A stretch of DNA of 32,000 nucleotides from assembly GCF_008065095.1 (NCBI RefSeq), contig NZ_CP042911.1:8040001-8072000 (forward strand), read 5' to 3'. The DNA comes from Gemmata obscuriglobus (GTDB lineage Bacteria; Planctomycetota; Planctomycetia; Gemmatales; Gemmataceae). Shown one piece after another: positions 7,266 through 22,912 of this stretch. Each line of letters begins with the position of its first letter. Position 1 is the stretch's first letter. A model generated the notes under the pieces. That model ran no database searches. It was not told the DNA's origin and saw nothing but the letters and a program-made list of their open reading frames with translations. The position numbers and the translations under genes were made by a program.

Positions 7266-7292
7266 TGGAGTTCCCCACGGAAAGTGGACAGC
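7266..7292. repeat. IS3-family terminal inverted repeat (orfB-proximal end)
   Basis: See the mobile element entry. It pairs with 8483-8509, and weaker similarity (AGCGGTG) extends about 10 nt further inward. Confidence 0.85.
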
Positions 7293-7294
7293 TT

Positions 7295-8186: not shown

Positions 8187-8442
8187 GGATGTCGCGCTCC
8201 ATCTCCAGCCGCTTCACCTCGGCCCGCAGCCGCCGGTTTTCGTCCTCGAGCGGTGTGAGATGGCCGGATCCGGGGAACGCACTCGGCCCGTCCTTGGCGA
8301 GCGCCTTCTTCCACGTGTGAAGCCGGTTCTCCGAGACGCCCAGCCGACGCGCGGCCTCCGCAACCGAGAGCTTCTGCTCCGTAACCACCTTCACCGCCGA
8401 GAGCTTGTACTCGGGCGCGTACGTCTTCCGCTTGCCAGCCAT
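8149..8442 (-). CDS. IS3-family transposase OrfA (HTH, leucine-zipper region)
   Basis: 97 aa, ATG at 8442, preceded by the strong SD AAGGGAGA. The sequence MAGKRKTYAPEYKLSAVKVV...LSVAEAARRLGVSENRLHTWKK...ENRRLRAEVKRLEMERDILK is typical of IS3/IS911 OrfA. Confidence 0.9.
   Translation of the reverse strand: MAGKRKTYAPEYKLSAVKVVTEQKLSVAEAARRLGVSENRLHTWKKALAKDGPSAFPGSGHLTPLEDENRRLRAEVKRLEMERDILKMRRRPSIQTN
8179..8187 (-). other. Putative programmed -1 ribosomal frameshift site of the IS3 element
   Basis: On the minus strand, CTC AAA ATG (..ERDILK|M) overlaps the orfB frame C AAA AT -> N-A-S. It lies where IS3 elements carry A AAA AAG, but only an A4 run remains here. Confidence 0.45.
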
Positions 8443-8482
8443 CGGTGTCTCCCTTAATGCTTGGAGTTTACACCGCTTTCCC

Positions 8483-8509
8483 GCTGTCCACCATTCGTGG
8501 GGAACTTCA
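8483..8509. repeat. IS3-family terminal inverted repeat (orfA-proximal end)
   Basis: It is the reverse complement of 7266-7292 with 4 mismatches. Confidence 0.85.
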
Positions 8510-8589
8510 GATCCCCCAGCATGAATAACGGAACGGCCCCGCCCGGTATACGGTTGACGAGATAGCCCAACTCACCCCCTCGTCCGTCG

Positions 8590-11500
8590 CTACCGCCCCG
8601 GCGGGAGTGGTACCAGTTGCACCCGCAGCCCCGGCGCCGGCGGGCCAGCGGCGTGGTACCGGAGTTCGTCGGCCCGTGCCGGCGACCACCCGCGGCCGGT
8701 AGCGGGGCGCGCGGTCCACCCCGGGGCCGGTCGCACGCGCACGTCGACCGACGTGAGCCGGCCGTTCGGGACCGCCGGAACGGCCGGTTCGAACGGCCAT
8801 TCGGCTCCGGGCCTGCCGCCGGGATCGAGCGTCCCGGTCCATTCGAACGCCCCCTCGCGGGCGCCGGCTCGGAGCCACACTTGCACCCGCTCGCCGGACC
8901 GGCCCCACCCGGACACGTCCGGGCCGCGCACCTCCAGCACCTGCACCGCGGGAACCGAAAACTCGAACAGCGCGACCGGTGCCTCGCTGCTCCACGAAAG
9001 ATGCCCGTTCGCGTCGGCGCGGGTCGGCCCGACAGCCCAGGCGGTGGACGAGAGCACCCGGGGGGCCTCACCCGTGCGCAACACGGGCCGCAGTTCGGCG
9101 GCCGCGCCGGGCGCCGGGCGGAACGCCCGCGGCAGTTGGTTCGGGTCGAGCTTCAGGTCCGTTACCGGAACGAAGTCGCGCAGCGCGTCGGCCGAAAAAT
9201 CGATCACCCCGGTGCGGCCGACCTCCTCCACCGCAACCCGCGTCGGGCGGAGCGCGTAGACGGGGTCCGTTTCGCCCTTCACGGACCCGAACACCACCCG
9301 CGGGAACCGCAGCACCGGTTGACGGGTCAGCGGCTTACGCGGCGCGCACTCCAGCACTACCAGGAACCGACCCGCGGACGCCCCCTGGAAGTCGATCTGC
9401 AGTGGACGAACGCCGCCCTTCTCCGGTTCCAGTTGCCAGTCCCGCAGCGCGGGCGCCGTGCCGAGCGCGTCGGGCGCCCGGACCGCGACCCGCAGCACCT
9501 CCAGTTCCGCCGGGACGTCGACCCGCAGCCCCGGAACGGTGCCCTGTTCGACCCGCACGAGGTACGCGGCCGTCAGCTCGGCCCCGCCGTCGGTCACGTC
9601 CCACACGCACGCCTCGCGCACCTTGATCGCGGCGGCCCCGTCCACGCCCTCGCGCCATCGGAGGTGAACGTGCTTCACCGCGCCGAGGTCCGCCTCGATC
9701 GTGGTCCGCTCGCCCGCGGTGGCCGTCGTCTGACGGCCGAGTCGCCCCACCGATTGCGGTTGACGCGCCGCGCCGGGCAGCACCGCTGTCAGCTTCGTGT
9801 CGGGCACGTCTGGCGTCCCGAACCGCAGCTCGCGCTCGGCCCCGGACGCAGTAACGGTCGCGGCGAACCGGATGTCGATCTCGTACCGACCCGCCGCACC
9901 CAGCGGAACCGCGTACGTGTCGGGCTTGGGAGCGGTTGCGAACGCCGGCGCCCCGTTCACCGTCACCCGCTCCAGCCGCGCGTCCCCCAGCGGAAGCGTG
10001 AGCACGTTGTCCCCGGGGCGGAACGCATGCACAACGAACCGTGCCGCGACCCACGCCCCGGTGTCGTCGGCCCGCACGTCGTAAGTCACCGCCGTGACCA
10101 CTGGAGGTAACGGGGCGGGGTGGGCGAGCGCGTCGAGCCGCTCCAGCAGCGCATTCGCAGCGGTCACCTCCTCGGCGCCGCCGGCCCCGGTGCCGATGAA
10201 GACGGTGACCGGAACCGGCGGTTGGGCGATCAACCCGAACGACCCGAGCGCCAGCGTGCCGACCAGGATCCCGGCGGCGACCGCACGGCGGGCGGCAGCC
10301 CACACAAGTGCGCGGGCGAACCCAACGGGCGCGGCGCACAGCACCGGCCACGCGATCCGCGCCCACCACGGCGACCCGAACTCCGCGGCGCCAAGCGCGG
10401 CCGCCGCAACGGCCCCGAACACGAGAGCCCCGCGCGCCCGGCCGGCGCCCACAACCCCGAGCGCAACCACGACCGCGGCCGCCACCGCCGCGACGGCGTC
10501 GGCGGTGCGCACGGCCCCGACCCGTACCCACCCGTCGTCGGACCGGATAACGAGCGCCGGCGGGCCGCTGGTGATCGGCCCGCCGAGCAGCGGCGGGCCG
10601 TCCGCAACGGCCCCGTCCGGGCGCGCCGGCCACCCGGGCAACACCCCATCCGCGAAGCTCCACCACCGGCGCACCGGCGGGTCGCCCGGGACCAGCGGTA
10701 CCGGACTGGTGACCGTCCGGGTCGGCCACCCCGGCTCAGCGGGTAGGCGGTATCGTACCTCGAACCGCACCGCATCGCCGACGGGGATCGGGACCGACAG
10801 CGCTCCGCCACGCACGGCGCACGCGGCCGGGCTAAGCCAGCGCCCGTTGACGCACACCCCGCGCACTTCTGCACGGTGGGGCAGTTCCACTGGCAGCGTA
10901 CCGCCCCCGGAGTCGCGCACGGTCGCCCCGAACGCCGCAACTATCTCATCGGGGCCGCGCACTGCGGTGAGCAAATACGCGCCCGTCGCCTGTAGCCCGG
11001 CCGCCACGGGCGCCGGCCGCACGCGCAGCTCGGCGCCTTTCAGCTCGGCCGTCGCGCGCCCGCGAAGTGCGGCGGCCAGTTCGACCCGGGTGTTCTGGTC
11101 GGCACCGACCAGTCGCGGCACTCCGAGGACAAAATCGTCCGTCCCGAGTGGCGGGCCGGGTGCAACCGTCTCGAGCACGGCGGCGCCGGCCACCGGCCGC
11201 GCGAACCGCACGAGCCAGAACGTGCCCGCGCCACCCGCGCCGACCCGCGCGGGGGCACCGACGAGGTTCGCGAGCCCGTCGATCGTTCCCAGGAAAGGGG
11301 GCTCGATCAGCGCGGGCGGAATCGGGATCGCGCTCGCGGCGTTCTCGGCCGGGCCGGTGAGGCCCCACGTCCGGCCGTCGTCGGGCGGGCCGGGCACGAA
11401 CACCAGCGCCTCGGTGAGCGCGCCGCCGGCCGCGGAAAGAGAAACGCGCGTGGTCGCGAGCCACCGCCCGTCGGCCGTTCCCAGCGACACGACGGCGTCG

Positions 11501-13380
11501 GCTCTCAGCACCGGCGCCGCGGGCGCCAGTACGAGCGTGCCGGCGGGCTCCTTCGCGCGGTAGGTGTAAACGGCCCGGGCGTCGGCGGGAGCATCGGTCG
11601 CGAGCCAACCCCACAGCCCCGCCGGCGTCGCTCCGGCATCGGGTCGAAGCTGTGGCACCCAGGCGGGTGCGACCGAAACGCTGAGCCACCCGTCGCGCTC
11701 GGTCGCGCCGGCCACGGCGAACGTCGGGAACGGCACCGGCGTGCCGGGCCGCGCTCCCGGACCGCGGAACTCGAACCGTAGCTCGGCTTGTTGGCCGGCG
11801 AGCAGCGGGCGCGCCAGTTCGATGACCTGGCCGTCCGCCCACGGGGGGCCGATGTGTGCGACGAGTTCGTCCGTCCCGGCTGCGCCGCGGTCGAGGGCGA
11901 ACCCCGGCGGCGGGCGCACGGTGAGTTGGAAAAGCGCCCCGCGGGTCGCCCGCACGCCCACCCGGGCGACGAGGAGCGATGCCGCCGGTCCCGGGAACCA
12001 CTCCAACCGCTCAAAGGTGTTGAACGCGCTCTCGGGGTTGGTCAGGCGGATCGACGGCATCCGGCGGAACGGGGCGTTGCTCCCGGGGGCCATCAGCGCG
12101 CCGCTGAGCGAAAGTACCCGCGACAGATCGGTCGCCGTAACCGCGTCCGTGAGGTGGTAGTCCCCCGGCGCCCACGACCCGATGTTCAGCCCGGGGGCCA
12201 CTCGCAGTTCAACGGACTCGCTCTCGGTGACGGCGCCGAGCGGGCGGACCGCGGGCAGCGGCGCGTCTGCGTGGCGGGCGGCGTCCGGGAGCGGCGCGAC
12301 CGCGGTGACGAGCACTTTCCCACCGGGGCCGGGCTGCCGCAGAGAGACCGTAACGCGGCGCGGGCCGCCGGGCGCCGCAGGCGGCCCGACGGACCACCCG
12401 GCGCCGTTGTTCGCGATCACCTCGGTGACGCGCAGACCCGGGTCCGCGAGGAGCGTCCACTCTCCCACCGACCCGCGCACCGGGCGCAGCTCGTACTCGA
12501 ACGCCGCGGTGAGTTGGTGCGGGCTCAGCTCGTACTTCGCGACCAGCGCCGCCGTGGCCCCCGCGGACGCCGCAGCCGTGGCGCGGACCGCGAACTCGAG
12601 CCGGGGCCGGCCGCCGAACTGAAACCGCCACCGCTTCCGGCCGGGCTTGCCCTCGGCGGCGAAAGGGCCGGTGAGGAGGGCGTCGGTGAGCGGCGCGGGC
12701 ACCTGGTCGTCCAGCAGTTCCAGATCCAGCGCCGCCGACGCGCACGTCGGCACCTTCAGGTCGAACCGTCGTTCACCGGGTTCCGCGGTGCCCGCGAGGG
12801 ACCACCGAAACTGGAGCGCCTGGCGCCCTTCACGGGTGACCCACACCGCCGGTGCCGCAGCCCCGGCCGGGACGGCGAGCACCGCGGCCCCGTCGGCGCC
12901 CCACCGCGGAGAGCGGACCGCCACGCGCAACGGGTCGAGCGACAGGAACGCGGCGCCGCCGGTCGCGTTCAGCACCCCGAGCGTCGCGGTGCCGACGAGA
13001 TCGCCGCCGTCGATTGCGGCCGTGTAGTTCGCTTCGACGATTCGCGGCGCGTGCTTCGCTCGCGCGACGGCCCGACCCGCGGCCCGCACCCGGGCTTCAA
13101 ATTCGCTGCGCGGCAGGCGGAGAACCGGCCCCGGTTCGAACTCTTTCAGCAACTCGGGAAGTTTGGCGGCCGGGGCGCGGACCCGGCGGATCGGGAACGG
13201 GTCGTCGGCCGGGGTCGCGTCGAGGGCGCCGCGCACGGCGGCACCGACGGGCGGGCGCGGCGCCGCCCCGAGGGCGGCACCGGCCGCGCACGCGAGCGCC
13301 AGAATCAGCCAGCCCGACCTGGACATCATACGCGCCACCGATCCGCTTACTCCCCGTCGGCGCCGCGCCGGCGGGCTCAT
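8590..13380 (-). CDS. Giant (1596 aa) membrane-anchored envelope protein of unknown family; two large ectodomains separated by a central cluster of ~4 TM helices
   Basis: An uninterrupted 4.8-kb GC3-rich frame. It has a signal-like N-terminus (MMSRSGWLILALACAAGAALGA; the alternative ATG at 13329 may be the true start). A central hydrophobic cluster lies at about nt 10215-10510 (AVAAVAAAVVVALGVVGAG / LVFGAVAAAALGAAEF / IAWPVLCAAPVGFARALVWAA / AAGILVGTLALGSFGLIA). The protein is Ala/Gly/Pro/Arg-rich and looks beta-rich. I could not assign any motif to a known family. It starts 21 nt downstream of the preceding gene's stop, giving operon geometry. Confidence 0.85.
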   Translation of the reverse strand: MSPPARRRRGVSGSVARMMSRSGWLILALACAAGAALGAAPRPPVGAAVRGALDATPADDPFPIRRVRAPAAKLPELLKEFEPGPVLRLPRSEFEARVRAAGRAVARAKHAPRIVEANYTAAIDGGDLVGTATLGVLNATGGAAFLSLDPLRVAVRSPRWGADGAAVLAVPAGAAAPAVWVTREGRQALQFRWSLAGTAEPGERRFDLKVPTCASAALDLELLDDQVPAPLTDALLTGPFAAEGKPGRKRWRFQFGGRPRLEFAVRATAAASAGATAALVAKYELSPHQLTAAFEYELRPVRGSVGEWTLLADPGLRVTEVIANNGAGWSVGPPAAPGGPRRVTVSLRQPGPGGKVLVTAVAPLPDAARHADAPLPAVRPLGAVTESESVELRVAPGLNIGSWAPGDYHLTDAVTATDLSRVLSLSGALMAPGSNAPFRRMPSIRLTNPESAFNTFERLEWFPGPAASLLVARVGVRATRGALFQLTVRPPPGFALDRGAAGTDELVAHIGPPWADGQVIELARPLLAGQQAELRFEFRGPGARPGTPVPFPTFAVAGATERDGWLSVSVAPAWVPQLRPDAGATPAGLWGWLATDAPADARAVYTYRAKEPAGTLVLAPAAPVLRADAVVSLGTADGRWLATTRVSLSAAGGALTEALVFVPGPPDDGRTWGLTGPAENAASAIPIPPALIEPPFLGTIDGLANLVGAPARVGAGGAGTFWLVRFARPVAGAAVLETVAPGPPLGTDDFVLGVPRLVGADQNTRVELAAALRGRATAELKGAELRVRPAPVAAGLQATGAYLLTAVRGPDEIVAAFGATVRDSGGGTLPVELPHRAEVRGVCVNGRWLSPAACAVRGGALSVPIPVGDAVRFEVRYRLPAEPGWPTRTVTSPVPLVPGDPPVRRWWSFADGVLPGWPARPDGAVADGPPLLGGPITSGPPALVIRSDDGWVRVGAVRTADAVAAVAAAVVVALGVVGAGRARGALVFGAVAAAALGAAEFGSPWWARIAWPVLCAAPVGFARALVWAAARRAVAAGILVGTLALGSFGLIAQPPVPVTVFIGTGAGGAEEVTAANALLERLDALAHPAPLPPVVTAVTYDVRADDTGAWVAARFVVHAFRPGDNVLTLPLGDARLERVTVNGAPAFATAPKPDTYAVPLGAAGRYEIDIRFAATVTASGAERELRFGTPDVPDTKLTAVLPGAARQPQSVGRLGRQTTATAGERTTIEADLGAVKHVHLRWREGVDGAAAIKVREACVWDVTDGGAELTAAYLVRVEQGTVPGLRVDVPAELEVLRVAVRAPDALGTAPALRDWQLEPEKGGVRPLQIDFQGASAGRFLVVLECAPRKPLTRQPVLRFPRVVFGSVKGETDPVYALRPTRVAVEEVGRTGVIDFSADALRDFVPVTDLKLDPNQLPRAFRPAPGAAAELRPVLRTGEAPRVLSSTAWAVGPTRADANGHLSWSSEAPVALFEFSVPAVQVLEVRGPDVSGWGRSGERVQVWLRAGAREGAFEWTGTLDPGGRPGAEWPFEPAVPAVPNGRLTSVDVRVRPAPGWTARPATGRGWSPARADELRYHAAGPPAPGLRVQLVPLPPGR

Positions 13381-13401
13381 GGCGTTTGGTAACCGAAGCT
13401 G

Positions 13402-16400
13402 CTATGCGCCGCTGCCTGTGGGGGCGGGTGTGCCGGCGCCCCCCGGGCGGCTCGGCGCCGACGGCGACGGCGGGATCGTCGCGCTGGCGGTCGGCGCCGG
13501 GAGCGTGCGCGTGAACCCGGGCAGGTACCGGACCCGGCGCCGCACCTCCCACCGCACCGCCGCTTGCACCGCGACCGCGGCCAACCCGAACACGAGCCCC
13601 GGTTGCGCCGCCGCAACCGCTTGGGCCGCCGGCTGCGGGTACAGCACCACCGCCACCGCGAACCCGCCTCCCAGCGCCGCAATCGTCAGCGCCGCGGCCA
13701 CCGGGTTGAGCCACGCCAGCAGCACCACGAGCAGGAACACCACCAGCGAGCACACGACCAGGACCGCGGTCCACGGGGCGCGGGCCACCCGCACCGGCTC
13801 GGGGCCGAGCTGTCGCGCCGCCAGCGGCTCGCCCTCTTGGAGCGGTGCCGGGGCGCCCGACAGGGGCTCGTCCCCGGACGTGAACCAGCGCTCCAGCTCG
13901 GCCCGCGGGGCGGCCGACGGCGCGAACACCGGCCCGCGCCACCGCCACCGTAGCTCCGGGCGGGTCCGCCCCCCGAGCAGCAGCGGGGCCGAACCCGACG
14001 GCTCGGTGATCAGCCAGCGGACCGGACCGGAGTACGCCGCGGCCGTCACCCGCGGCGGGACGTAGAGCGTTTCCCCGACCGCCTGGCGCGTTCCGGGTAG
14101 CGCGTACTGCACCTCCAGAACCGCGGCGCGCCCGGCCGGCAGTTCGGGCCGGGATACGCGGAACAGCCGCCCGCCGTTCGCCTCACCGGCCGGCTGTAAC
14201 GGGGCGGTCAACCCGTCCAGACGGGCCGTCGGGTTGGGACCGGTTTCGTTCGGCAGCCACACCTCGACCGCCGGGGCGAGCCACCGGACGAGCCGGAACC
14301 GCGCGCGGTAGCTGACGCTCCCGTCCTCGGTGGCCCCCGCTTCGACCAACGCGCGATCGATCCACACGGCGGCGGCCGATTCCGGCGGCGCGGGGTGCAA
14401 CTCCACCGCGAACGGGTGCTCCGCGGACGCGCCGAGTGTGAGGGCAGGGAGCGTGTCGCGCTCGGGAATCACTTCAGGGGGCAGTTCGCGCCACCTCGGG
14501 GCGGCGGCGCTCACCGTTCGCCCCGTCATCGAGTTGACCCACACGCGAACCGTCGCCTCGGTGCGCGCCGCCTCGGCCGGCCAAAACAGCCCCACCGGCA
14601 CCGCCACCGGCCCGTCGGTACGTTCGGGCAGCGGGAGCGCGAAACTGATCCGTACGGTGTGATCGGCCGTGTCGGCGATCGGAACGAACGACCACACGCC
14701 GGGTGAAAGGGCGTCGAGGGCGGGAACGGTCTTCAGCCCCAGCGCGTCGGCGGGGCCGCGGAGCCGCACCGGGCGCGAGAACCCGTCAACCGCGCGCAAC
14801 CGGAGGGTTTGAGACACCACCAACTGGCGCTCGCCCACGGTCACGTCGGCGCGCACCTCTGCGGTCACATCTGGGCGGGGCTGGCGCCAGCTCAGCGCGA
14901 CCCCGGCGGCCCCGAGTTCCGCCCGACCGGTTACGGAAACGGGCACCTTTGGCGGCGTGCCGTCTGTCCCGGGCACGGCCCCCAGCGCCGCGCCGGCCGC
15001 CGCGATGTGATCACCTTCGCGGTCGCGCCAGGAGCCACGCAGCTCCAACCCGTCGGGTACGACTGCGGTGACGGTCGTGTCCCGCTCCAGGGCCTTTGGG
15101 AACCGCGGCAGCGGGACGGTCGTTGCGCTGCTACCCGCCGGCACCTCCACGGCGCCGACCAGCACCACGCTGAACGGCTGTTTGGTGGGGCGGGCGAGGC
15201 GCACCGTGACCGGGAGCCACGCGCCATCCCCCTTCCCCTGCCCGACGCCCTGCACGGCCTCGGGATCGAACTCGGACTCCAGCCCCCGCCACTCGGCCGG
15301 CACCTCGACGGTGAGGGCGTCGAGTTCCGTGCGGATCGGCCTGACGTTGATTTCGGCCCGCACGCGCCAGCTCGCACCGCTCTCGGCGAGATCGAGGCGG
15401 TACACCGGCCGCACCCGCACCGCGCCCTCGACGGGAAGCGCTTCGACGGTCAGCAGCGGAACGTCCACCGGAGCCGAACCCGTCGGGCCGGTGGTGAGCT
15501 TGAACTGTGCGACGCTGAGCTCCTCGTCCGCGCCCCCCCCGGCCGGGTCCGCACGCCGGAGGTCCGGCCCGTGTCGGAATATGAACCGGTGGTGCGGTCC
15601 GGTCTTCACGGTCACCGTCCCGGTCTGCCGCAGCACGTCGAGTGCCCCGAACGGGCCGACCGGGACCGGCTCCGACATCGTTCCGGCCTTCGGCCGCGAC
15701 TGGCGCACCACGGCGGTGACCAGCCAGTCGGCACCGGTCGAGTCGGCGGGCAGTGCGATCCTCCAAACGGGCTTGCCCGGCTCGCCCGGTCGGATGACGA
15801 CGGGCAGTTGAGCGGGACCGGTCTCCCCGGCCGCCGCGACCCGCTCCACGCTCACATCGGCGGCCGGCGGCGCGACGAGCTTTAGCTCGCGCCCGGGGCC
15901 GCGCACCTTGAACTTCGCCGTCGATTCGGCGAACCCGTCGGTTAACACGACGCCCACGTCGAGGTCGGCGCTCGACACCTGATCCGCGGGCTGCGCGGCC
16001 GCCGCGGGCGGGTCCCAGACCACCTCCAGCGATTCCACCGGGCCGAGCGGGAAGCCGCCCCCGGCGTCGTTCGGGGCCAGTTGCTTCGCGTCCACGGGGA
16101 AGCGCCGCGGTTCGGTCAGCTTGGGCGGGTCCGGCGTTTTGGTGATGAGGGCGAGGCGCTTGACGTCACCCGGCATTTCGACGGCGAGCTTCGTGACCGG
16201 CGCACGCGGGAGCCCGAACTCGAACCCGATCTCCGCCTTCGTGCCGCGCGCCGTGACCGGGGCCTCGAGGTCGAGAACGAGGGCGTGGGCTCCGGCGGAC
16301 TCGACTAGCACCGCGAGCCCGTCGTCGGCGGTTTCGAGTACCGGCTGCTTGGCCCCGTCGAGCGCCGCGCCGGTGGCGAACGCGCGGCGCCCGCCCAGCG

Positions 16401-16911
16401 CGACCGCCGCGTTGGGCTGGGCGGTGCGGAACGTGTACGTGAGCTTCAGTGCGGCGACGAGCTGGTCGCCGCGCTTCTCGAGGCGGCCGCCGATGACGCA
16501 CTCGTGCGGCGCAACCGGTTTGCGAGCAGCGAGTTCCTTTCTCAGGGCCTCGGCCCGCTCGGACAACTTTTGAAAGTCCTGCGGGCTGAGCGTCACACCG
16601 TCCGCCACCCCGAGCAGGAGGAACGTCCCGTCCGGGAGTTTCACCGCGAGCGACTTGGCGTCGGCCTTATCGCCCTTGGCTTCGGGCAACTTCTTGGACG
16701 GTTCCCCGACGGGCGGTTGAGCAGATAGGGCGGCCGAAGCGATTATCAGGGTGGCGAGAGCGACAAAGCCTGTTCTGCGGCTGGACGCGGGAGGGGAGAA
16801 CGCCACTCTCCCGCGCGCATTCGAGTCGCAGGCGGGTTCCGCAACGCGGCTCACACCCCGTTTAAGAAACGGGGGGCCGTGAGGGATAAGGTTCTCCGCG
16901 TGTGCGGGCAT
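13402..16911 (-). CDS. Giant (~1169 aa) membrane-anchored envelope protein of unknown family, paralogous to the N-terminal two-thirds of the 8590..13380 product
   Basis: The track ORF starts at a TTG (16962). I prefer the first ATG at 16911 (MPAHAENL...). It has a signal/anchor segment (TGFVALATLIIASAALSAQPP), a ~980-aa ectodomain, then a ~3-TM cluster at about nt 13550-13785 (WTAVLVVCSLVVFLLVVLLAWL / VAAALTIAALGGGFAVAVVLY / GLVFGLAAVAVQAAV). The tail is Pro/Ser/Thr-rich (LPAPTASATIPPSPSAPSRPGGAGTPAPTGSGA). Confidence 0.85.
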   Translation of the reverse strand: MPAHAENLIPHGPPFLKRGVSRVAEPACDSNARGRVAFSPPASSRRTGFVALATLIIASAALSAQPPVGEPSKKLPEAKGDKADAKSLAVKLPDGTFLLLGVADGVTLSPQDFQKLSERAEALRKELAARKPVAPHECVIGGRLEKRGDQLVAALKLTYTFRTAQPNAAVALGGRRAFATGAALDGAKQPVLETADDGLAVLVESAGAHALVLDLEAPVTARGTKAEIGFEFGLPRAPVTKLAVEMPGDVKRLALITKTPDPPKLTEPRRFPVDAKQLAPNDAGGGFPLGPVESLEVVWDPPAAAAQPADQVSSADLDVGVVLTDGFAESTAKFKVRGPGRELKLVAPPAADVSVERVAAAGETGPAQLPVVIRPGEPGKPVWRIALPADSTGADWLVTAVVRQSRPKAGTMSEPVPVGPFGALDVLRQTGTVTVKTGPHHRFIFRHGPDLRRADPAGGGADEELSVAQFKLTTGPTGSAPVDVPLLTVEALPVEGAVRVRPVYRLDLAESGASWRVRAEINVRPIRTELDALTVEVPAEWRGLESEFDPEAVQGVGQGKGDGAWLPVTVRLARPTKQPFSVVLVGAVEVPAGSSATTVPLPRFPKALERDTTVTAVVPDGLELRGSWRDREGDHIAAAGAALGAVPGTDGTPPKVPVSVTGRAELGAAGVALSWRQPRPDVTAEVRADVTVGERQLVVSQTLRLRAVDGFSRPVRLRGPADALGLKTVPALDALSPGVWSFVPIADTADHTVRISFALPLPERTDGPVAVPVGLFWPAEAARTEATVRVWVNSMTGRTVSAAAPRWRELPPEVIPERDTLPALTLGASAEHPFAVELHPAPPESAAAVWIDRALVEAGATEDGSVSYRARFRLVRWLAPAVEVWLPNETGPNPTARLDGLTAPLQPAGEANGGRLFRVSRPELPAGRAAVLEVQYALPGTRQAVGETLYVPPRVTAAAYSGPVRWLITEPSGSAPLLLGGRTRPELRWRWRGPVFAPSAAPRAELERWFTSGDEPLSGAPAPLQEGEPLAARQLGPEPVRVARAPWTAVLVVCSLVVFLLVVLLAWLNPVAAALTIAALGGGFAVAVVLYPQPAAQAVAAAQPGLVFGLAAVAVQAAVRWEVRRRVRYLPGFTRTLPAPTASATIPPSPSAPSRPGGAGTPAPTGSGA

Positions 16912-16984
16912 GGGTCGTTCCCGTTGGCGACGGCTCCGCCATCTCCAACTCAGTATACCCAAACCCCGCAGTCGATTTGCCCCA

Positions 16985-18463
16985 TCAAACGGGAATCGGT
17001 TCCCCGAATCCCCCGGTCGACCTGCGCAGGTCGTGCGCGCGGCCTTCTCGGCACCCCAGGACGGCGCACAGGGCGGCGGCGAGCAGCACGAACGCGCCAG
17101 TGTGGGTGCCGTACACCAGCGCGAGGTCCGCGCCCCGACCGCCGAGCAGCCCAGGCCCGGCCATCAGTACGAACGAAGCGCCCAGTGCCCCGATTACGAA
17201 GATGCGCACGCGGCGGGAGATGTTCGCCACCGCAACCGCCCAGGCGAGGGCCGCCAGCGGGAGCAGCAGTACGACCGCGTGGTGCTTCCAGGTCCGCTCG
17301 CTGAAGAGGAGCATCCCGACGCAGATGAGCCCGCACTCGGCGGCGACGCGCCAGCCGTGGCGCGGGTCGGTCGGGCCGCGCACCGGCGCCCGGCACAGCA
17401 CCACCACCGCGAGCGCGAACAGGGCCGTGAGCGCCTTCACCACGACCCACGCGGCGGGCCGCCCGATGTCCGTAAGGTTGTGGTACTCGGCGGGCGTGGG
17501 GATGTCGCCTTCCGGCGTCTTCAGGTACGTAATGTAGGACGGGCTGTTGGTGAACAGCCGGTACACGAACCCTGTGACCGCCTGGTTCGGGTGCTCGGTC
17601 GTGATCTCTCCCTTGAGCAGCGGGCGCTCGACCATGAGCGCGTACCAGTCCCCCATCAGCTCGCGGTTGCGGTCGAAGCCGAACACCGCGCCCGGCACCA
17701 CCACGAGCCACAGCACCAGACCGGCGAGCGAGGCGGCGAGCGCCCGCCAGCACCGCTTCCACGCGAAGTACGCGACGAACAGCGCGGGGGTCACCTTGCA
17801 GGCGATCGCGAGCGCGAGGGTGAGCCCGGCGAGCGTGTCGAGGCGGCGGCGGAACGCTTCCAGCGTGGCCGCGACCAGGAACAGGATGAAGATGTTGACG
17901 TTGTTGTGCGACAGGTCGCCGAGCAGGGCCGGTAGGCACACGACGATCGCCGCGGCTTTCGCCAAATCGAGGCGGGCGGAGCGCGTGAGCCCACCCGCAT
18001 CACGTTCGCGGCCCGCCTGCGGCGGCGCGGGCTCGCCGGGCTGTTCCCCGCTCGCCCGGCACAGCCGGAACGCCCACACCACGGCCAGCGCCGCGAGCAG
18101 CGCTTTCGCGTAGAACCAGCCCAGCGCCCCGGCCGCCGGCGGCAGTGCCGCGAACGGCCGCAGCAGCACCGCCATGATCGGCGGGTTCGGGTACTCGTTG
18201 CGGCCGACGTAGATGTTCTCCCCGGCGAATACCCCGTTCACCATCTCGCGCCACCGCAGGAACGCCGACCGGGTCTGCTGTCCGGTGTCACCCGGCTTGG
18301 CGATCTTGGCCGCGTACTTCACGCTCATCAGCACGACCACGACAGCCAGCAGCCCGACGAACCCGGCCCGCACCCGGGCGGGATTCGTTGCGTGAGCGGT
18401 GCGGAGCCATCCGGCGAACCGCGAGAACGACAACAGACGCACGCTCCACCCCCTCCCGGCCAC
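16985..18463 (-). CDS. Polytopic membrane glycosyltransferase, GT87 / DUF2029-like (polyprenol-phosphate-sugar dependent GT-C type)
   Basis: 492 aa with a GTG start at 18463. There are more than 10 hydrophobic segments. Motifs I associate with DUF2029/GT87 (PimE-like) proteins are present: early-loop YPNPPIMAVLLRPF, DLSHNNVNIFILFLV, and LAIACKVTPALFVAYF. The family call is from memory and needs an HMM search. It is the first gene of the minus-strand operon. Confidence 0.7.
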   Translation of the reverse strand: MAGRGWSVRLLSFSRFAGWLRTAHATNPARVRAGFVGLLAVVVVLMSVKYAAKIAKPGDTGQQTRSAFLRWREMVNGVFAGENIYVGRNEYPNPPIMAVLLRPFAALPPAAGALGWFYAKALLAALAVVWAFRLCRASGEQPGEPAPPQAGRERDAGGLTRSARLDLAKAAAIVVCLPALLGDLSHNNVNIFILFLVAATLEAFRRRLDTLAGLTLALAIACKVTPALFVAYFAWKRCWRALAASLAGLVLWLVVVPGAVFGFDRNRELMGDWYALMVERPLLKGEITTEHPNQAVTGFVYRLFTNSPSYITYLKTPEGDIPTPAEYHNLTDIGRPAAWVVVKALTALFALAVVVLCRAPVRGPTDPRHGWRVAAECGLICVGMLLFSERTWKHHAVVLLLPLAALAWAVAVANISRRVRIFVIGALGASFVLMAGPGLLGGRGADLALVYGTHTGAFVLLAAALCAVLGCREGRAHDLRRSTGGFGEPIPV

Positions 18464-18610
18464 AAGGAAGCGGGATCATCGCGCAGACCGACCGTCGTGG
18501 TCAACCCGAAGCTCGTGCCACCCGTGGCGCGGCGGCGCGGTCTTGACCTTGCTCGGTTCGTCGGGTTGCTGCTAGGCTCCCGCCCGGAACTGCGGCAAGG
18601 ACCTGAACTC
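18464..18610. promoter_or_regulatory. Divergent promoter region between the GT87-like operon (-) and the 18611 membrane-protein gene (+)
   Basis: A 147-bp gap lies between two divergently oriented start codons. There is a weak sigma70-like candidate, TTGCTC-N18-TAGGCT, on the plus strand around 18550-18580. The call is inferred from gene geometry only. Confidence 0.4.
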
Positions 18611-20539
18611 ATGAACGATACGCCGACCGGCGGATTCCGCGAGCAGCCCGCGTGGCTGGTGGCCGCGGCGGTGGTTGTGGTGGCACAAACCGGGCTGGCG
18701 CTGGGGCTGTTCGGCCCCGGCCGCCCGTGGGCCGCGGTGACCGACGACCGCCCGATTGTGTCGGGGCGGCACCCGCTGCACCTGTACCACGGGACGCTCG
18801 GCGCCGCGGCGTTCCGCGACCACCGGAACGCCACCTGTTACGACCCGGCGTTTCAGGCCGGGTACCCCAAAACCCCGGTCTTCGACGGCGGCAGCCGGCC
18901 GGCGGAGCTGTTCGCACTGGTGGGCGGCCCCGGGTACCGCCCGGCGGCGTACAAGGTGGGCGTGCTCGTCTTCCTGATGCTAATCCCCGGGGCCTTCATC
19001 GCGGCGGCCCGCGGGGCGGGGCTGCCCGCCGGCCCCGCGGTGCTGACCGGGTGCTTCGGGGTGCTGCTCGCGTGGTGCCCGGCGGTCCGGGCGATGCTCG
19101 AGGAGGGGCAACTCGACCTGCTCGGCGCCGGGCTGGCGGCGGCGGTGTTCGTGCCGTGGCTCGGCCGGTACGCGCGATACCCGGGGCCGGAGCCGTGCCT
19201 GGTGCTCGCGGGGCTGGCGCTGGCGGGCTGGTACGCGCACCCGCTGGTGTGGGTCGGGCTGCTCCCGGTGATGTTCGTGTTCTACCTCGTGTTCGCGCCG
19301 CAGCACGGCCCGGGGTGGCACCTCGGGCTCGCCGGGATCGTTTCGTTCGGCGTCGTGCCCAACACGTGGTGGCTTGTCGACTGGGGCAAATACTGGTGGC
19401 TCCGGCAGCCGTCGTCGAGCGACCACATCCCGTTGCCGTCGTGGGAGGCGGTGCTGGGCGCCCCGGCCGACTATGCGGCCCTGTGCGGGGGCCTGCCCGG
19501 CGGCGCGGTGGTGCCGCTGGTCGCGTTCGGCGGGCTGGTGCTGCTGTGGGCCGGCGGGCACCGGGCCGCGGCGTGGTTGTCCCTGCTGACCGCGGTGCTG
19601 GCGGTGTGCGCCGCGCGGCTGGCGGCGACGTGGCCGCGGGTCCCCCCGGAGGTGCCTGCGCGGGTGGCCCCGTTCGCGCTGGCGCTGCTCGCCCCGGCGG
19701 CGGCGTTCGGCGTGTGGGAGGTGATGCGGCGGGCGCGGGCGGCTGGTGCGGGCGTGGCGCTCTGCGCGGCGGCGCTGTTCCTGGTGGGCTGGGCCGACGG
19801 GCCGGGCGCGCCGTTAGCGAACCTGATGGGCGTGCGCACGCAACCGTTCCTGTTGGGACTCACGCCCGAGCAGCAGCGGCTCGTGGGCGCGCTCCGCGAG
19901 CACACCACGCCCGCGGCCCGCGTCTTGTGGGAGGAGGCGGGCGAGCGGCCGGGCGGGAACTGGTCCGTGCTGCTGCCGCTGTACACCGGCCGGGCGTTCC
20001 TAGGGGGGCTGGACACCGACTCGGAGATCGACCACGGGTACTGCGGGCTCCGGAACCAGTGCCTGAGCGGGCGCCCGCTCGCCGAGTGGACCGACAAGGA
20101 GCTGTCCGAGTTCTGCCGCTGGTACAACGTGGGCTGGGTGGTGTGCCGCACCGCGGGCACCGCGGAGCGGTGGGAGCGGTGCGCCGAGGTGAACGAGCGG
20201 GGCGAGAAGAAGCCGCTCGCGAGGGCCGTCACGCGGTTCACCGAGAACGGCCAGCCCGTGGTGCTGTTCGCGCTCGACCGCCCGCTCACGTTCGTGCTCG
20301 ACGGGCGCGCCGTACTGGAATCGGCGGACGCGAAGCGAATTGTGCTGACCAACGTCGAGCCGAACGCACTCGGCTACGTCGACCTGAGCTTCCACGATTT
20401 CGGTGGGCTGCACGCGTACCCGAGCTACGTGAAGCCCCTCAAGTGTTCCAACCCGGTGACGCGGGACCCGGTGGACCACATCCGGCTCTCCGTGCCCGGC
20501 CCGGTGCCCCGCATCGTGCTCGTGTGGGAGCACCCGTAA
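18611..20539 (+). CDS. Polytopic membrane protein (~11 TM) with a ~200-aa C-terminal soluble domain; possible GT-C-fold glycosyltransferase (speculative)
   Basis: The start is set at ATG 18611 (MNDTPTGGFREQPAWLVAAAVVVVAQ...). The track start at 18392 would overlap the divergent gene. It has many hydrophobic helices and a first loop carrying acidic and His residues (AVTDDRPIVSGRHPLHLYHG...YDPAFQAGYPKTPVFDGG). The C-terminal domain is globular (…DKELSEFCRWYNVGWVVCRT…RIVLTNVEPNALGYVDLSFH…). I recognised no defined family. Confidence 0.8.
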   Translation: MNDTPTGGFREQPAWLVAAAVVVVAQTGLALGLFGPGRPWAAVTDDRPIVSGRHPLHLYHGTLGAAAFRDHRNATCYDPAFQAGYPKTPVFDGGSRPAELFALVGGPGYRPAAYKVGVLVFLMLIPGAFIAAARGAGLPAGPAVLTGCFGVLLAWCPAVRAMLEEGQLDLLGAGLAAAVFVPWLGRYARYPGPEPCLVLAGLALAGWYAHPLVWVGLLPVMFVFYLVFAPQHGPGWHLGLAGIVSFGVVPNTWWLVDWGKYWWLRQPSSSDHIPLPSWEAVLGAPADYAALCGGLPGGAVVPLVAFGGLVLLWAGGHRAAAWLSLLTAVLAVCAARLAATWPRVPPEVPARVAPFALALLAPAAAFGVWEVMRRARAAGAGVALCAAALFLVGWADGPGAPLANLMGVRTQPFLLGLTPEQQRLVGALREHTTPAARVLWEEAGERPGGNWSVLLPLYTGRAFLGGLDTDSEIDHGYCGLRNQCLSGRPLAEWTDKELSEFCRWYNVGWVVCRTAGTAERWERCAEVNERGEKKPLARAVTRFTENGQPVVLFALDRPLTFVLDGRAVLESADAKRIVLTNVEPNALGYVDLSFHDFGGLHAYPSYVKPLKCSNPVTRDPVDHIRLSVPGPVPRIVLVWEHP

Positions 20540-20751
20540 GCACCGGGACTTGGGGCCACGTCCTTTGGCGGGCCGGGGGGATCTCGGCAACCCTCCGCCC
20601 GCACACTTTCCGGCCAGTTTGTCTCAAGCGCTATTGACCGGCTGCGGCGCGCGGGTATGCCCACGTCCCAAGCAGAAACACTGTTCGCGAGGGCCGGTCC
20701 GGTTCCGGGGGGAATCGGGCCGTTCGGCGCGCCACTGTCTAGGACGGACGC

Positions 20752-22758
20752 ATGAACCGGGCGTGGGAACTCGCAGCGGGGATCAGCCGGCGCCACTTCC
20801 TCGCGTGGTCCGCCGCGGTCGGGGCGGCCGGGCTGGCCGGGTGCAAGAGCACCGAAGCCGCCAAGCTCCAGACCCCGCGGTCGCAGATCGGGGAGGACCC
20901 GGCGGACCCGGAGACGGTCCCGACCGTCGGTTCCAAGACCTCGGTGGGCAACACCGAGGCGCTGACGGTGAGCGGGGTCGGGCTGGTGTACAACCTGCCC
21001 GGCACCGGCAGCAGCCCGGCCGCGGGCAGCTGGCGCACGATGCTCGAGGACAGCCTGAAGAAGCTCAAGCGGGACCAGACGCTCAACCTGCGCGAGCTGC
21101 TCGACGGGCCGGGCCGCACCACCTCGCTGGTTATCGTGTCGGCGCAGATCCCGCCGGGGGCGCGGGAGGGCGACCCGATCGACGTGCAGGTCACCCTGCC
21201 CGACGACAGCAAGACCACCAGCCTGCGGGGCGGCGAGCTGTTCGCCACCGAGCTGATCACGTTCGACACCACCGGCAACATCCGGGCGCAGGTGCGCGGC
21301 CCCGCGGCGCGGGGCGGCAACCAGCTCGTCGCCGGGAGCGTGTGGGCGCGGGCGCAGGGCCCGCTCGTGGCCGGCAACATCGTCCTGGACGGGGCGGACG
21401 GTAAGGAGGCCAAGCCCGACACCGACGCCGAGGGCCGCGCGCTGTACCGGGCCGGGTTCATCGCCGGCGGGGCCAAGGTCGCGCACACCCGCCCGTACTA
21501 CCTGTTGCTGAACTCGGGCGACCAGAACCCGCGCGTCGGGGCCGCCATCGCCGAGCGGATCAACACCACCTTCCACACCACTTCGGACCCGCGGTTCAAG
21601 GTCGCCGACGCGAAGGACCGCGAGCTGATCCTGCTGAGCGTGCCGGCCGCGTACCGGCACAACCACTACCGGTTCCTGCTGGTCGCCCGGCAGGTGCCGT
21701 ACAACCCGGTCGGCGCGAACAGCGTGTACCGCCAGAAGCTCGAAGAGGAGCTGATGGACCCGGCCACCGCGCTCACCGCGGCGGTGAAGCTCGAGGCGCT
21801 CGGCGGGGACTGCCGCCGGAGCCTCAAGATCGGCCTGGAGAGCGCGTCGCCGTGGGTCCGGTTCGCGGCCGCCGAGGCGCTCGCGTACCTGGGGCAGACG
21901 GACGGCGCCGCCGAACTCGCCCGGCTCGCCGAGGACCACCCGGCCCTCCGCGCCCAGAGCCTCAAGGCGCTCGCGTCGCTGGACGACGCCGCCGGCACCG
22001 ACAAGCTGGTGGAGATGCTGACCAGCGGCGACGCCGAACTCCGCCACGGGGCGTTCATCGCCCTGCGGCTCGCCGACGAGCGGCACCCGGCGCTGGGCGG
22101 GGCGCTCATGAACCGCTCGTACTACCTGCACCGGGTCGGCGGCCGCGGGGCGTCGGCGGTCCACCTCACCGCCGCGGGGCGCAGCGAGATCCTGGTGTTC
22201 GGCGACAACGTGAAGCTCCGCGGGCCGATGCCACCGGTGCCGCTGGGCAGCGAGTTCACGGTGTCGGTGCCGGCCGGCGACGAGGGCGCGAAGGTCACCC
22301 GGGTGGTGCGCCTCAAGGACCGCGACCCCGAGGTGAAGGAGGCGCGCTGCGGCGCCGACCTGAGCGCGGTGCTCGGCGCGCTGGCGAACCTGGGCGGCGG
22401 GTACTCGGAGGCCGTCGAACTGGTCCGCCGGTCCGCCCGGGCGGAGGCGCTCTCGGCCCCCGTGGTGATGGACGCGGTGCCGCGCGAGATGAGCATCCAG
22501 CAGCTCGCCGGTTTCGCCAAGGTGGACACGACCCTGGCGAAAGCGAACGTGGAGGTCGCGAAGGTGGGTACGGTGCAGCCCGCCGTGGACGCCAACGGGT
22601 TCGAGGTGCCGGTGGACCAGGGGCCGCTGGTCGCCCCGGCCGGGGCGGCGCTGCCGAAACAGGCGCTGAACCGCAACCCGGGGCGCCTGTTCGGGCCGAG
22701 CCGGGCGTCCGACGCCCCCATCCTCGACCCGGCCGTGGTCCCGGCCGGGGGGCGGTAG
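20752..22758 (+). CDS. FlgI (flagellar P-ring)-like protein with Tat signal, lipobox, an inserted HEAT-repeat module and a C-terminal extension
   Basis: ATG at 20752 with AGGA 9 nt upstream. The Tat motif is SRRHFLA and the lipobox is LAGC. FlgI-like blocks compared with E. coli FlgI from memory: [16 protein letters not shown] ~ [61 protein letters not shown] ~ [56 protein letters not shown] ~ [46 protein letters not shown] ~ [33 protein letters not shown]. HEAT/PBS-lyase-like repeats lie at about nt 21720-22100 ([30 protein letters not shown]). Confidence 0.8.
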   Translation: [668 protein letters not shown]

Positions 22759-22796
22759 AAGTTAACCGTGTAAAGGCAGAAGGCAAACGTTGAAAA

Positions 22797-22835
22797 CGGC
22801 CCGGCGGACATTCCGTCCGCCGCGGCCGGCTTTTA
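22797..22835 (+). terminator. Putative rho-independent terminator after the FlgI-like gene
   Basis: The GC stem GGCCCGGCGGAC / GTCCGCCGCGGCC has one bulge and a short loop, and is followed by GGCTTTTAA (T-run at 22831-22834). It lies 40 nt after the stop. Confidence 0.5.
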
Positions 22836-22912
22836 ACCTGCACTCACGCTCGAGCCTTCAGAAGTTAGCGGGCTCCGACTTCGCGCTTCCGATTTTCGAC
22901 TGTTGACTTCCC

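Follow-up and report, generated by a model that had tools for sequence, protein, structure and literature searches.

A paired family of giant membrane proteins in Gemmatales and its genomic neighbours in Gemmata obscuriglobus

The GT87 enzymes of the PimE and Rv2181 type in Actinobacteria are polyprenyl-phosphate-mannose-dependent mannosyltransferases, and they build lipoglycans (PIM, LM and LAM). Ost1/ribophorin I is a non-catalytic subunit of the eukaryotic oligosaccharyltransferase and a partner of the GT-C enzyme STT3. Canonical FlgI is a soluble, Sec-exported protein of about 365 residues. Proteins resembling each of these are encoded in a divergent 14-kb region of G. obscuriglobus, which we analyzed within a stretch of 32,000 nucleotides (the window). 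A preliminary reading of the DNA, made from the letters alone (the sequence-only reading), had described five genes here and proposed that they form a single envelope module. We consider it rather probable that the region is instead a lineage-specific juxtaposition of three independent units, one of which has as its core a pair of giant proteins, A-type and B-type.

All five ORFs and the features ascribed to them were found at the positions given in Table 1, and domains and hydropathy again predicted every product to lie in or beyond the cytoplasmic membrane. The minus-strand genes are separated by 21 nt (13381-13401) and 73 nt (16912-16984), as reported. The divergent spacer measures 147 bp with the GTG start of GT87 at 18463, or 168 bp with the public start at 18442, which yields a 485-aa protein. 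Upstream of GT87, a minus-strand sigma-70-like site (18504-18475; one found versus 0.1 expected) was identified by consensus match only. The hairpin beyond the B-type gene is weak evidence for a terminator, since terminator-like sites were not enriched over shuffled sequences. The left flank holds PLD and an IS3-type element with rve, rve_2, rve_3 and HTH_21 transposase domains; its 31-nt terminal inverted repeats (7262-7292 and 8483-8513) are 87% complementary, and it stops 76 nt past the 3' end of the minus-strand genes. The right flank encodes SMC, an M24 peptidase and AccB/AccC. The large ORFs scanned in the window included no other flagellar, secretion or polysaccharide-export gene.

Table 1. 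Positions of the features discussed, with the basis or location of each
Feature	Position	Strand	Basis or location
IS3-family insertion sequence, intact	7262-8513	-	transposase domains and terminal inverted repeats
Terminator-like hairpin, weak	8531-8544	-	46 nt past B-type stop codon
B-type giant	8590-13380	-	ORF and hydropathy
A-type giant	13402-16911	-	1169 aa; AlphaFold2 model, family search
GT87 polytopic glycosyltransferase	16985-18463	-	Pfam PF09594
Divergent spacer	18464-18610		between GT87 and 642-aa gene
642-aa polytopic protein	18611-20539	+	homolog and Pfam search
FlgI-fold lipoprotein with HEAT repeats (FlgI-HEAT), 668 aa	20752-22758	+	Pfam, AlphaFold2, Foldseek
smc, chromosome segregation ATPase	22913-26608	+	NCBIfam TIGR02168

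The giant pair and its adjoining glycosyltransferase

Searches of both giants against Pfam, NCBIfam and PDB sequences returned no match, in agreement with the earlier impression that neither could be placed in a characterised family. Their proposed paralogy was weak by BLASTP (186 aa, 26% identity, E 6e-6) but decisive by profile-profile comparison, with homology between the A ectodomain and the N-terminal ectodomain of B (probability 99.6%, E 6.5e-25, 690 columns). Every named protein among 89 B-type homologs comes from Gemmatales, and the named members of the A-type family (653 representatives at 50% clustering) come from Gemmataceae. By these comparisons, the giants are distant but true paralogs, restricted to Gemmatales and without characterised relatives.

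Hydropathy gives both giants an N-terminal signal/anchor and a C-terminal or central transmembrane cluster. The B-type giant (1596 aa from the first ATG; 1578-1579 aa in public calls) has its signal/anchor at about residues 22-41 by hydropathy. Its N-terminal ectodomain spans about 42-950 (nt 10531-13257) and its C-terminal ectodomain 1055-1596 (nt 8593-10218), with about four clustered transmembrane segments between them at 954-1053 (nt 10222-10521). The C-terminal ectodomain duplicates the first ~540 residues of the N-terminal one (hhalign probability 97.2%, E 4e-11), and the shared module is present one and a half times in the B-type giant. In the AlphaFold2 model of the A-type giant (mean pLDDT 79.7, pTM 0.44), a signal/anchor helix (49-62), a disordered linker and a long helix (110-128) precede an all-beta multidomain array (137-1046; nt 13774-16503), followed by three C-terminal helices (1047-1129; nt 13525-13773) and a disordered arginine-rich tail. 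The modelled protein would thus carry its beta domains in series in the periplasm, on an anchor of three helices.

The two giants travel together. With family membership assigned by HMM, an A-type gene (~1150 aa) was followed by a B-type gene (~1600 aa) in 32 of the 33 loci having at least 2.5 kb upstream of B; no A-type gene was detectable in two short loci with ~2 kb upstream of B each (L109 and L131). The pair is found in Gemmata sp. SH-PL17, Limnoglobus, Tuwongella, Telmatocola and two further long MAG-type contigs, with A-B gaps ranging from a 4-nt overlap to ~120 nt; Tuwongella and Telmatocola are non-flagellated. We regard this Gemmatales-wide pair as the part of the locus worth following.

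The first gene of the minus-strand unit matches PF09594 well (95.7 bits versus a cut-off of 25, E 4.6e-27), which upholds its assignment as GT87/DUF2029-like, and its product has about 9-10 hydrophobic segments by hydropathy. It shares this match and a polytopic GT-C-like topology with the PimE/Rv2181 type; unlike those lipoglycan-building enzymes, it is planctomycete and genomically coupled to two giant membrane proteins. We found no literature on GT87 in Planctomycetes. In 13 of 28 informative foreign loci, the gene immediately upstream of the A/B pair is a GT87 gene, as it is in the window and in G. algarum (locus L010), and such loci are concentrated where the B protein is at least ~41% identical to that of the window. 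The minus-strand genes, read earlier as a tight operon, are a conserved unit across relatives, with GT87 present in about half of the loci. The pair stands without an adjacent GT87 gene in about 12 loci besides those of Limnoglobus, Tuwongella and Telmatocola; glycosylation is therefore not intrinsic to the core function of the pair, unless an unlinked enzyme provides it.

The best Foldseek matches of the A-type model were Ost1/ribophorin I structures (8b6l_O, 6s7t_E, 6c26_1 and 6ezn_A; E 1e-6 to 4e-9, probability 1.0, ~440 aligned columns), a resemblance at the level of fold only given TM-scores of 0.23-0.32 and rmsd above 20 Å, and one for which sequence and profile searches gave no support. 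Both proteins display membrane-anchored beta-sandwich domains on the non-cytoplasmic side, and the A-type giant is encoded beside a GT-C glycosyltransferase in about half of its loci. The A-type giant, however, is two to three times the size of Ost1, has many more beta domains and is anchored by three helices rather than by one transmembrane helix; the neighbouring enzyme is a GT87 and not an STT3/PglB/AglB-type oligosaccharyltransferase, and the giants form an A/B paralog pair. Other Foldseek matches included integrin legs, complement MG arrays and RTX repeats, and the Ost1 likeness may be one common to beta-sandwich arrays in general. Integrin alpha legs, PIG-T of the GPI transamidase and the MG arrays of complement/alpha-2-macroglobulin likewise carry tandem beta domains on an anchor, but they matched the A-type giant with low probability or TM-score and without sequence similarity. 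The A-type giant showed no thioester, propeller or other signature domain.

These features are consistent with a unit at 8590-18463 that would be expressed as an operon, its conserved core being a translationally coupled giant pair. A small helical bundle would fix each giant in the cytoplasmic membrane, from which a long beta-domain array would extend into the periplasm, where A and B may assemble into a hetero-oligomeric scaffold. In the clade nearest to Gemmata, the gene ahead of the pair encodes a GT87 (GT-C) enzyme that presumably uses a lipid-linked sugar. By analogy with Ost1/ribophorin I and STT3, our best guess for that clade is that the giants are substrates or non-catalytic partners of GT87.

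A purely structural role is somewhat unlikely, though worth weighing. The pair could be a periplasmic spacer, tether or surface-anchoring scaffold, for example in the enlarged periplasm or the crateriform pits of Gemmatales, with GT87 adjacent by accident. Its presence in all Gemmatales examined, motile or not, the absence of GT87 from about half of the loci, and ~900 residues of tandem beta domains on an anchor, as in integrin legs and adhesin stalks, would all fit such a role. Against it, 13 independent foreign loci share the GT87-A-B order, again with short gaps and down to ~41% B identity, which exceeds chance expectation for these highly rearranged genomes. The sequence-only reading had raised an undescribed envelope complex, perhaps tied to periplasmic glycosylation; this idea stays alive for the minus-strand arm but not for the five-gene set.

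Synteny of the two arms

The 642-aa protein, read earlier as an ~11-TM protein with a soluble C-domain, has about 9-11 hydrophobic segments by hydropathy and a conserved C-terminal domain. It has more than 800 homologs; close ones pass Pfam PF10131 (32.7 bits versus 26.4), which the window protein itself does not match, and one is labelled 'RgtA/B/C/D-like' in UniRef. The first loop has invariant acidic and aromatic residues. The protein is probably a polytopic member of the GT-C superfamily with a soluble C-terminal domain.

We surveyed synteny from the FlgI-like side in 72 anchored loci, the number of loci scored differing for each neighbour. A GT87 or giant gene was within reach of the FlgI-like gene in 2 of 32 loci, and the 642-aa gene was near it in 6 of 45: five close Gemmata-type relatives and, on the opposite strand, one Fimbriiglobus MAG. 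Conversely, none of 53 giant-anchored loci contained the 642-aa gene, the FlgI-like gene or smc. The two arms lie ~100 kb apart in SH-PL17, and the FlgI-like gene has no giant and no 642-aa gene near it in Frigoriglobus, Limnoglobus and dozens of MAGs. The whole arrangement is confined to G. obscuriglobus and G. algarum. With no co-conservation of the five genes, the single-module idea fails the test that the sequence-only reading had set for it.

In its full form, that idea held that two polytopic transferases glycosylate the giants and assemble them around a FlgI-type ring. The envelope location predicted for all five products, the short divergent promoter region and the arrangement kept in G. 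algarum would suit it; the agreement of G. algarum weighs little, however, because the two are nearly identical (97% for the FlgI-like protein). The arms are apart in all other genomes, and even within Gemmata the 642-aa gene shifts in strand and distance relative to the FlgI-like gene (L014 and L018). Lost synteny alone is no proof that the two arms do not interact in G. obscuriglobus, but a single five-gene module is highly improbable. The 642-aa protein would rather be an independent GT-C-like unit, whose gene adjoins the FlgI-like gene in the genus Gemmata alone.

The FlgI-HEAT lipoprotein and smc

A Tat-exported lipoprotein with a FlgI-like core had been predicted, and a Tat signal (25.4 bits by profile search) with lipobox at residues 1-31 (nt 20752-20844) and a Pfam FlgI domain (67.5 bits, profile positions 11-220 of 343) were all found, along with HEAT_2 repeats (39.4 bits) that had escaped the earlier reading. 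HEAT helices (325-441; nt 21724-22074) separate an FlgI-like beta region (68-312; nt 20953-21687) from a second beta region (459-575; nt 22126-22476), and the tail (592-668) is disordered but contains a conserved motif. Lipobox residues G30 and C31 are invariant in 26 orthologs; the cysteine is in all orthologs, and the RR motif only in the closer clade. A PDB profile search matched FlgI over residues 64-174 (E 5e-8), and in Foldseek the AlphaFold2 model (pLDDT 68) matched Salmonella FlgI (7bgl_a; E 2.4e-13, 528 columns). The two NCBIfam FlgI models scored far below their cut-offs (57 versus 300 and 31 versus 557), and profile positions 11-223 of 343 were all that could be recognised by sequence, even with the HEAT segment deleted in silico.

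Like canonical FlgI, the protein is predicted to be periplasmic. It differs in being lipid-anchored, through a signal of the Tat type in Gemmata and of the Sec lipoprotein type in distant orthologs, in its greater length, and in a fold interrupted by a HEAT domain and followed by the conserved tail. It also differs in its genomic link to smc instead of flagellar genes: smc (927 bits versus a TIGR02168 cut-off of 567) is directly 3' and co-directional in 47 of 58 loci, the gap measuring 17-330 nt (median 118). No flagellar genes were found in seven contexts, six annotated with Pfam (L001/L002, L008, L009, L135 and L136) and one, L048, by its ten largest ORFs only.

Could it nevertheless be a genuine P-ring protein, a scattered flagellar gene with lineage-specific additions, as the PGAP label 'FlgI' implies? 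The lack of flagellar neighbours is weak evidence against this, because flagellar genes are dispersed in planctomycete genomes. The above-threshold Pfam domain and the Salmonella P-ring protein as best structural match favour it, and the gene occurs in Gemmata, Frigoriglobus and Limnoglobus, which are flagellated (PMC7397252, PMC7534041). By contrast, the NCBIfam scores, the partial profile match, the lipoprotein signal in every ortholog, the HEAT insertion of ~120 residues and the fixed place beside smc all speak against it, as do more than 20 MAGs carrying the gene that are assigned to Fimbriiglobus, whose type species lacks flagella (PMC7397252). A flagellar role is somewhat less likely than not.

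A functional tie to SMC, through cell-cycle- or bud-specific co-expression or a link between envelope and chromosome segregation, is quite unlikely. The adjacency persists down to 44% identity while the upstream neighbour varies, and no plus-strand terminator-like site was found between the two genes; yet with its invariant lipobox cysteine FlgI-HEAT would be extracytoplasmic and apart from SMC, Limnoglobus and some other lineages have lost the adjacency, and the block runs on into unrelated housekeeping genes (M24 peptidase and accBC) and may be no more than conserved gene order. We favour a third unit: a periplasmic FlgI-fold lipoprotein with HEAT repeats, whose gene shares a conserved block with smc, the M24 peptidase gene and accBC and is probably transcribed together with smc.

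Two arms of the divergent locus

The sequence-only reading had taken five genes, encoding a GT87 protein, two giant membrane-anchored proteins (A-type and B-type), a 642-aa polytopic protein and a FlgI-like lipoprotein (here FlgI-HEAT), to be one envelope module. All five agree with public gene calls (CP025958.1, GCA_003149495.1). The tight minus-strand gaps it described (21 and 73 nt) were found again, as was the divergent spacer of 147 bp, or 168 bp if a shorter GT87 start is used. Long spurious ORFs are abundant in the window because its G+C content is about 70%. The flanks are unrelated to the five genes, with an intact IS3-type element and PLD on the left and smc, an M24 peptidase gene, accB and accC on the right.

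Coordinates of features in the window and in homologous loci of other genomes or MAGs (L numbers)
Sequence	Positions	Strand	Feature	Details
Window	7262-8513		Intact IS3-family element	31-nt terminal inverted repeats; transposase with rve and HTH_21 domains
Window	8590-13380	minus	B-type giant	1596 aa
Window	13402-16911	minus	A-type giant	1169 aa
Window	16985-18463	minus	GT87	
Window	18611-20539	plus	Polytopic protein	642 aa
Window	20752-22758	plus	FlgI-HEAT lipoprotein	668 aa
Window	20752-20844	plus	Export signal of FlgI-HEAT	
Window	22663-22704	plus	Conserved tail motif of FlgI-HEAT	residues 638-651; consensus ...PLNRDPGRIFGPKR....
Window	22913-26608	plus	smc	
Window	20752-26608	plus	Adjacent FlgI-HEAT and smc	
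L009	12145-15899		smc, Frigoriglobus tundricola CP053452.2	called as three ORFs of 451, 186 and 206 aa
L082	5526-6350		thyX, Limnoglobus	divergently upstream of giant pair
L083	5114-5941		thyX, Tuwongella	divergently upstream of giant pair
L083	10001-17359		B-type giant, Tuwongella	2452 aa
L084	15233-17341		S9/Tricorn-type peptidase	directly downstream of giant pair
L085	14890-17019		S9/Tricorn-type peptidase	directly downstream of giant pair
L086	13198-16707		B-type giant, Telmatocola	1169 aa

Species-representative genomes were scanned with the FlgI-HEAT alignment, which gave 72 loci, all of Gemmatales type. We searched these by tblastn with all window proteins and counted only loci with enough flank. 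A GT87 or giant gene lay upstream of the FlgI-like gene in 2 of 32 such loci, and the 642-aa polytopic gene neighbored it in 6 of 45. One of the two former loci belongs to G. algarum (FlgI-like protein 97% identical); in the other, the FlgI-like gene has a GT87 relative with 43% identity ~8 kb upstream. Close Gemmata-type relatives (67–93% identity) account for five of the six loci with the 642-aa gene, and two of these carry it on the opposite strand and several kb away. The sixth, in a Fimbriiglobus MAG (L059), has a homolog of 51% identity, also on the opposite strand. Gemmata sp. SH-PL17 has GT87 and the two giants at ~0.42 Mb, and a 632-aa gene, FlgI-HEAT and smc at ~0.54 Mb. A metagenome scan anchored on the B-type alignment yielded 53 giant loci, none of which contained the 642-aa gene, the FlgI-like gene or smc. 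Since the synteny survey shows the arms apart nearly everywhere, the five-gene module is not real; the arms came together in the G. obscuriglobus/G. algarum lineage. We therefore discarded the FlgI-ring envelope machine as a tempting false lead, and two sharper questions replace it.

The IS3-family element lies 76 nt past the stop codon of the B-type gene, and could be tied to the rearrangement that joined the two arms.

The 642-aa protein is independent of the other units. Its family comprises more than 800 full-length homologs with highly conserved first-loop residues. The window protein gave no match to GT-C clan HMMs at E up to 1, and the family profile none in the PDB. Homologs 66–68% identical to it scored 32.7, 26.9 and 26.3 bits against Pfam PF10131 (cut-off 26.4), a polytopic membrane family which we take to belong to the GT-C clan. 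A GT-C-like transferase is plausible.

The paired giant proteins and GT87

By BLASTP, the two giants share just a 186-residue stretch of 26% identity. Family alignments were made for the 1596-aa (A2) and 1169-aa (A3) proteins, and profile-profile comparison of the A-type and B-type families gave a match over 690 columns (probability 99.6%, E 6.5e-25), which bears out the claimed paralogy. The A-type ectodomain (~146–952) matches the N-terminal ectodomain of the B-type protein (~152–930), and the C-terminal ectodomain of the latter (1055–1596) repeats the module over its first ~540 residues (probability 97.2%, E 4e-11). The pair thus derives from one ancestral periplasmic module, present in 2.5 copies across the two proteins. 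A-type proteins are steady in size (~1070–1260 aa); B-type proteins range from the short Telmatocola form through ~1600 aa in Gemmata to the Tuwongella form of more than twice the Telmatocola length, and B-type ectodomains therefore appear to gain or lose modules.

Neither giant had a motif that could be placed in a characterized family when read from the sequence, and Pfam and NCBIfam scans likewise returned nothing meaningful for either giant, their distant Tuwongella and Limnoglobus orthologs, or any of the 34 proteins in the A-type alignment. The PDB was searched by sequence with the profiles of families A2, A3 and A4 and with GT87 as a single protein, and gave no match beyond one result at chance level (0.2). 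Identities of the BatD, DUF4139 and alpha-2-macroglobulin type were considered and rejected after no Pfam support appeared.

The A-type gene is followed by a co-directional B-type gene in SH-PL17, Limnoglobus roseus, Tuwongella immobilis, Telmatocola sphagniphila and two long MAG-type contigs, with a spacing from a 4-nt overlap to ~120 nt. The same order was seen in 32 of the 33 loci having at least 2.5 kb upstream of B; two short loci (L109 and L131) are possible exceptions. Named members of both families come from Gemmatales in every case, and the A-type family has 653 representatives at 50% clustering. Tuwongella and Telmatocola are non-flagellated (PMC5845749, PMC7397252), and because both keep the A/B pair, the pair is not flagellar. 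These proteins are Gemmatales-wide, tightly coupled, paralogous and predicted to be periplasmic scaffolds, without characterized relatives. Beside them, an S9/Tricorn-type peptidase gene was found on two long contigs (L084 and L085), and thyX in Limnoglobus and Tuwongella (L082 and L083), both without GT87.

The GT87 protein matched Pfam PF09594 with 95.7 bits (cut-off 25) over profile positions 2–236 of 237, and a Kyte-Doolittle scan gave ~9–10 hydrophobic segments, a polytopic topology of GT-C type. The GT87 mannosyltransferases of Actinobacteria depend on polyprenyl-phosphate-mannose. Of 28 informative foreign loci, 13 have the GT87 gene directly upstream of the A/B pair, and most of these 13 encode a B protein at least ~41% identical to that of the window. 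It is absent beside the pair in Limnoglobus, Tuwongella, Telmatocola and the more divergent metagenomic loci. GT87, which is expected to use lipid-linked sugar, is linked to the pair in one clade, and this patchy presence indicates that the pair is the core, with GT87 as an addition of that clade. Ahead of GT87 is a promoter-like site, and past the B-type gene a weak hairpin; both are compatible with a single transcript and prove nothing.

In the mechanism that we prefer, the pair would assemble as a hetero-oligomer into an inner-membrane-anchored scaffold, which GT87 would glycosylate or work with. A glycosylation link of GT87 to the giants is conceivable and, on balance, rather doubtful. A literature search found nothing on GT87 in planctomycetes. 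Gemmatales have enlarged periplasms, crateriform pits and elaborate membrane invaginations. The giant pair is a genetically testable candidate for a part in lineage-specific envelope architecture or in periplasmic protein glycosylation.

Possible likeness of the A-type giant to ribophorin I

The A-type protein was modeled with AlphaFold2 from 34 sequences (mean pLDDT 79.7, pTM 0.44); its domains are predicted with confidence, their mutual arrangement is not. In the model, an N-terminal helix acting as signal or anchor leads through a disordered linker to a single long helix; ~900 residues of successive beta domains follow, and the protein ends in three helices and an arginine-rich disordered tail, which the positive-inside rule suggests to be cytoplasmic.

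In a Foldseek search of the PDB, Ost1/ribophorin I from at least five oligosaccharyltransferase structures came out on top (E 3.6e-9 to 1.7e-6, probability 1.0, ~440 columns), with TM-scores of 0.23–0.32 and rmsd above 20 Å, that is, at the domain level only. Integrin alpha legs, M1 aminopeptidase N-domains, PIG-T and complement MG arrays were the next matches. None of the 34 A-type family members matched the Pfam family of Ost1/ribophorin I (PF04597) at E up to 10, and the A-type family profile found no PDB match at E up to 10. The model-based resemblance is thus no more than a lead and does not make the protein a family member. Its main point of note is that the enzyme adjoining the A-type protein, GT87, is a GT-C glycosyltransferase, as is STT3, the partner of Ost1; no STT3/PglB-type gene was found in the window.

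GT87 and the A/B pair might, in one reading, be a periplasmic protein-glycosylation machine on the principle of the eukaryotic oligosaccharyltransferase, in which a GT-C catalytic subunit would be joined by large, membrane-anchored, ribophorin-I-like beta-sandwich partner subunits. We consider this highly improbable. If true, the complex would be specific to Gemmatales and without a described bacterial precedent. A literature search on ribophorin-like proteins in planctomycetes found nothing.

The FlgI-HEAT lipoprotein and smc

The Tat signal and FlgI-like core assigned to the lipoprotein by the sequence-only reading both stand, the core as a partial domain only; HEAT repeats had been missed. 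FlgI-HEAT covers only positions 11–220 of the 343 in the Pfam FlgI profile, and with the HEAT region deleted in silico the match was still only 11–223, leaving the C-terminal third unreached. NCBIfam FlgI models scored 57.1 (PRK05303, cut-off 300) and 31.3 (PRK12789, cut-off 557), and the family profile matched solved FlgI proteins over query residues 64–174 only. Its similarity to curated FlgI models is thus less than full-length.

The predicted structure comprises a beta region, 6–7 HEAT helices (325–441), a second beta region and a disordered tail. With this model (pLDDT 68) as the query, the best Foldseek match was Salmonella FlgI (7bgl_a; E 2.4e-13, probability 1.0), in an alignment of 528 columns that crosses the HEAT region with a target-normalized TM-score of 0.38. 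From the Foldseek alignment, HEAT may be an insertion within a FlgI fold.

Canonical FlgI is exported by Sec and stays soluble in the periplasm, with no lipid anchor (in part from PMC7183148). By contrast, FlgI-HEAT of the window carries a lipobox cysteine and a Tat motif, and departs from this soluble, Sec-exported type. Every ortholog with an available N-terminus has the lipobox cysteine. A twin-arginine (RRxFL) signal together with the lipobox occurs only in the Gemmata/Frigoriglobus-like clade (~55% identity or more), and distant orthologs (Limnoglobus, Fimbriiglobus-like) have short Sec-type lipoprotein signals. The type of export signal therefore switches within the family (L043–L079 against the window), with the cysteine kept. 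A short, strongly conserved motif lies in the C-terminal tail, which is predicted to be disordered. L639, R641, G644 and F647 of this motif do not vary across 26 orthologs, and it resembles a docking peptide for some partner.

No flagellar genes were found within ~10 kb of FlgI-HEAT in seven contexts, one of which (L048) was scanned in its ten largest ORFs only. FlgI-HEAT occurs in more than 20 Fimbriiglobus-labeled MAGs, and the Fimbriiglobus type species is non-flagellated (PMC7397252); FlgI-HEAT is apparently kept in a genus with a flagella-less type species. Literature searches on FlgI or the P-ring in planctomycetes, and on flagellar genes in Fimbriiglobus, returned nothing specific. FlgI-HEAT may be either the planctomycete P-ring protein or a FlgI derivative in other use. 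Should it turn out not to be flagellar, it would offer a rare example of a flagellar ring protein in a new use.

The downstream gene encodes a bacterial SMC (TIGR02168, 927.2 bits; cut-off 567.35). In 47 of the 58 Gemmatales loci with enough flank (window; L010–L081, L135 and L136), it comes directly after FlgI-HEAT and is co-directional with it, with a gap of 17–330 nt (median 118). The upstream neighbor varies among loci; downstream of smc, an M24 peptidase gene and accBC are often next. The adjacency of FlgI-HEAT and smc suggests that the two are a conserved transcription unit. A cytoplasmic, condensin-like role of the HEAT protein beside SMC was rejected on account of the invariant lipobox cysteine. 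FlgI-HEAT is a HEAT lipoprotein, probably of FlgI fold, fixed upstream of smc. On present evidence, it and the giants are uncharacterized lineage-specific families; such families are common in planctomycetes.

FlgI-HEAT-smc synteny of Gemmataceae type was also observed in MAGs labeled Singulisphaera, Isosphaera, Alcaligenaceae and Bacteroidales (L014, L030, L043, L044 and L045); these records are probably mis-binned or mislabeled. In Frigoriglobus tundricola (L009), ~1.4 kb ahead of the three smc ORFs is uncalled, and tblastn aligns SMC over the whole span with 83% identity, indicating either frameshifts in the assembly or a pseudogene.
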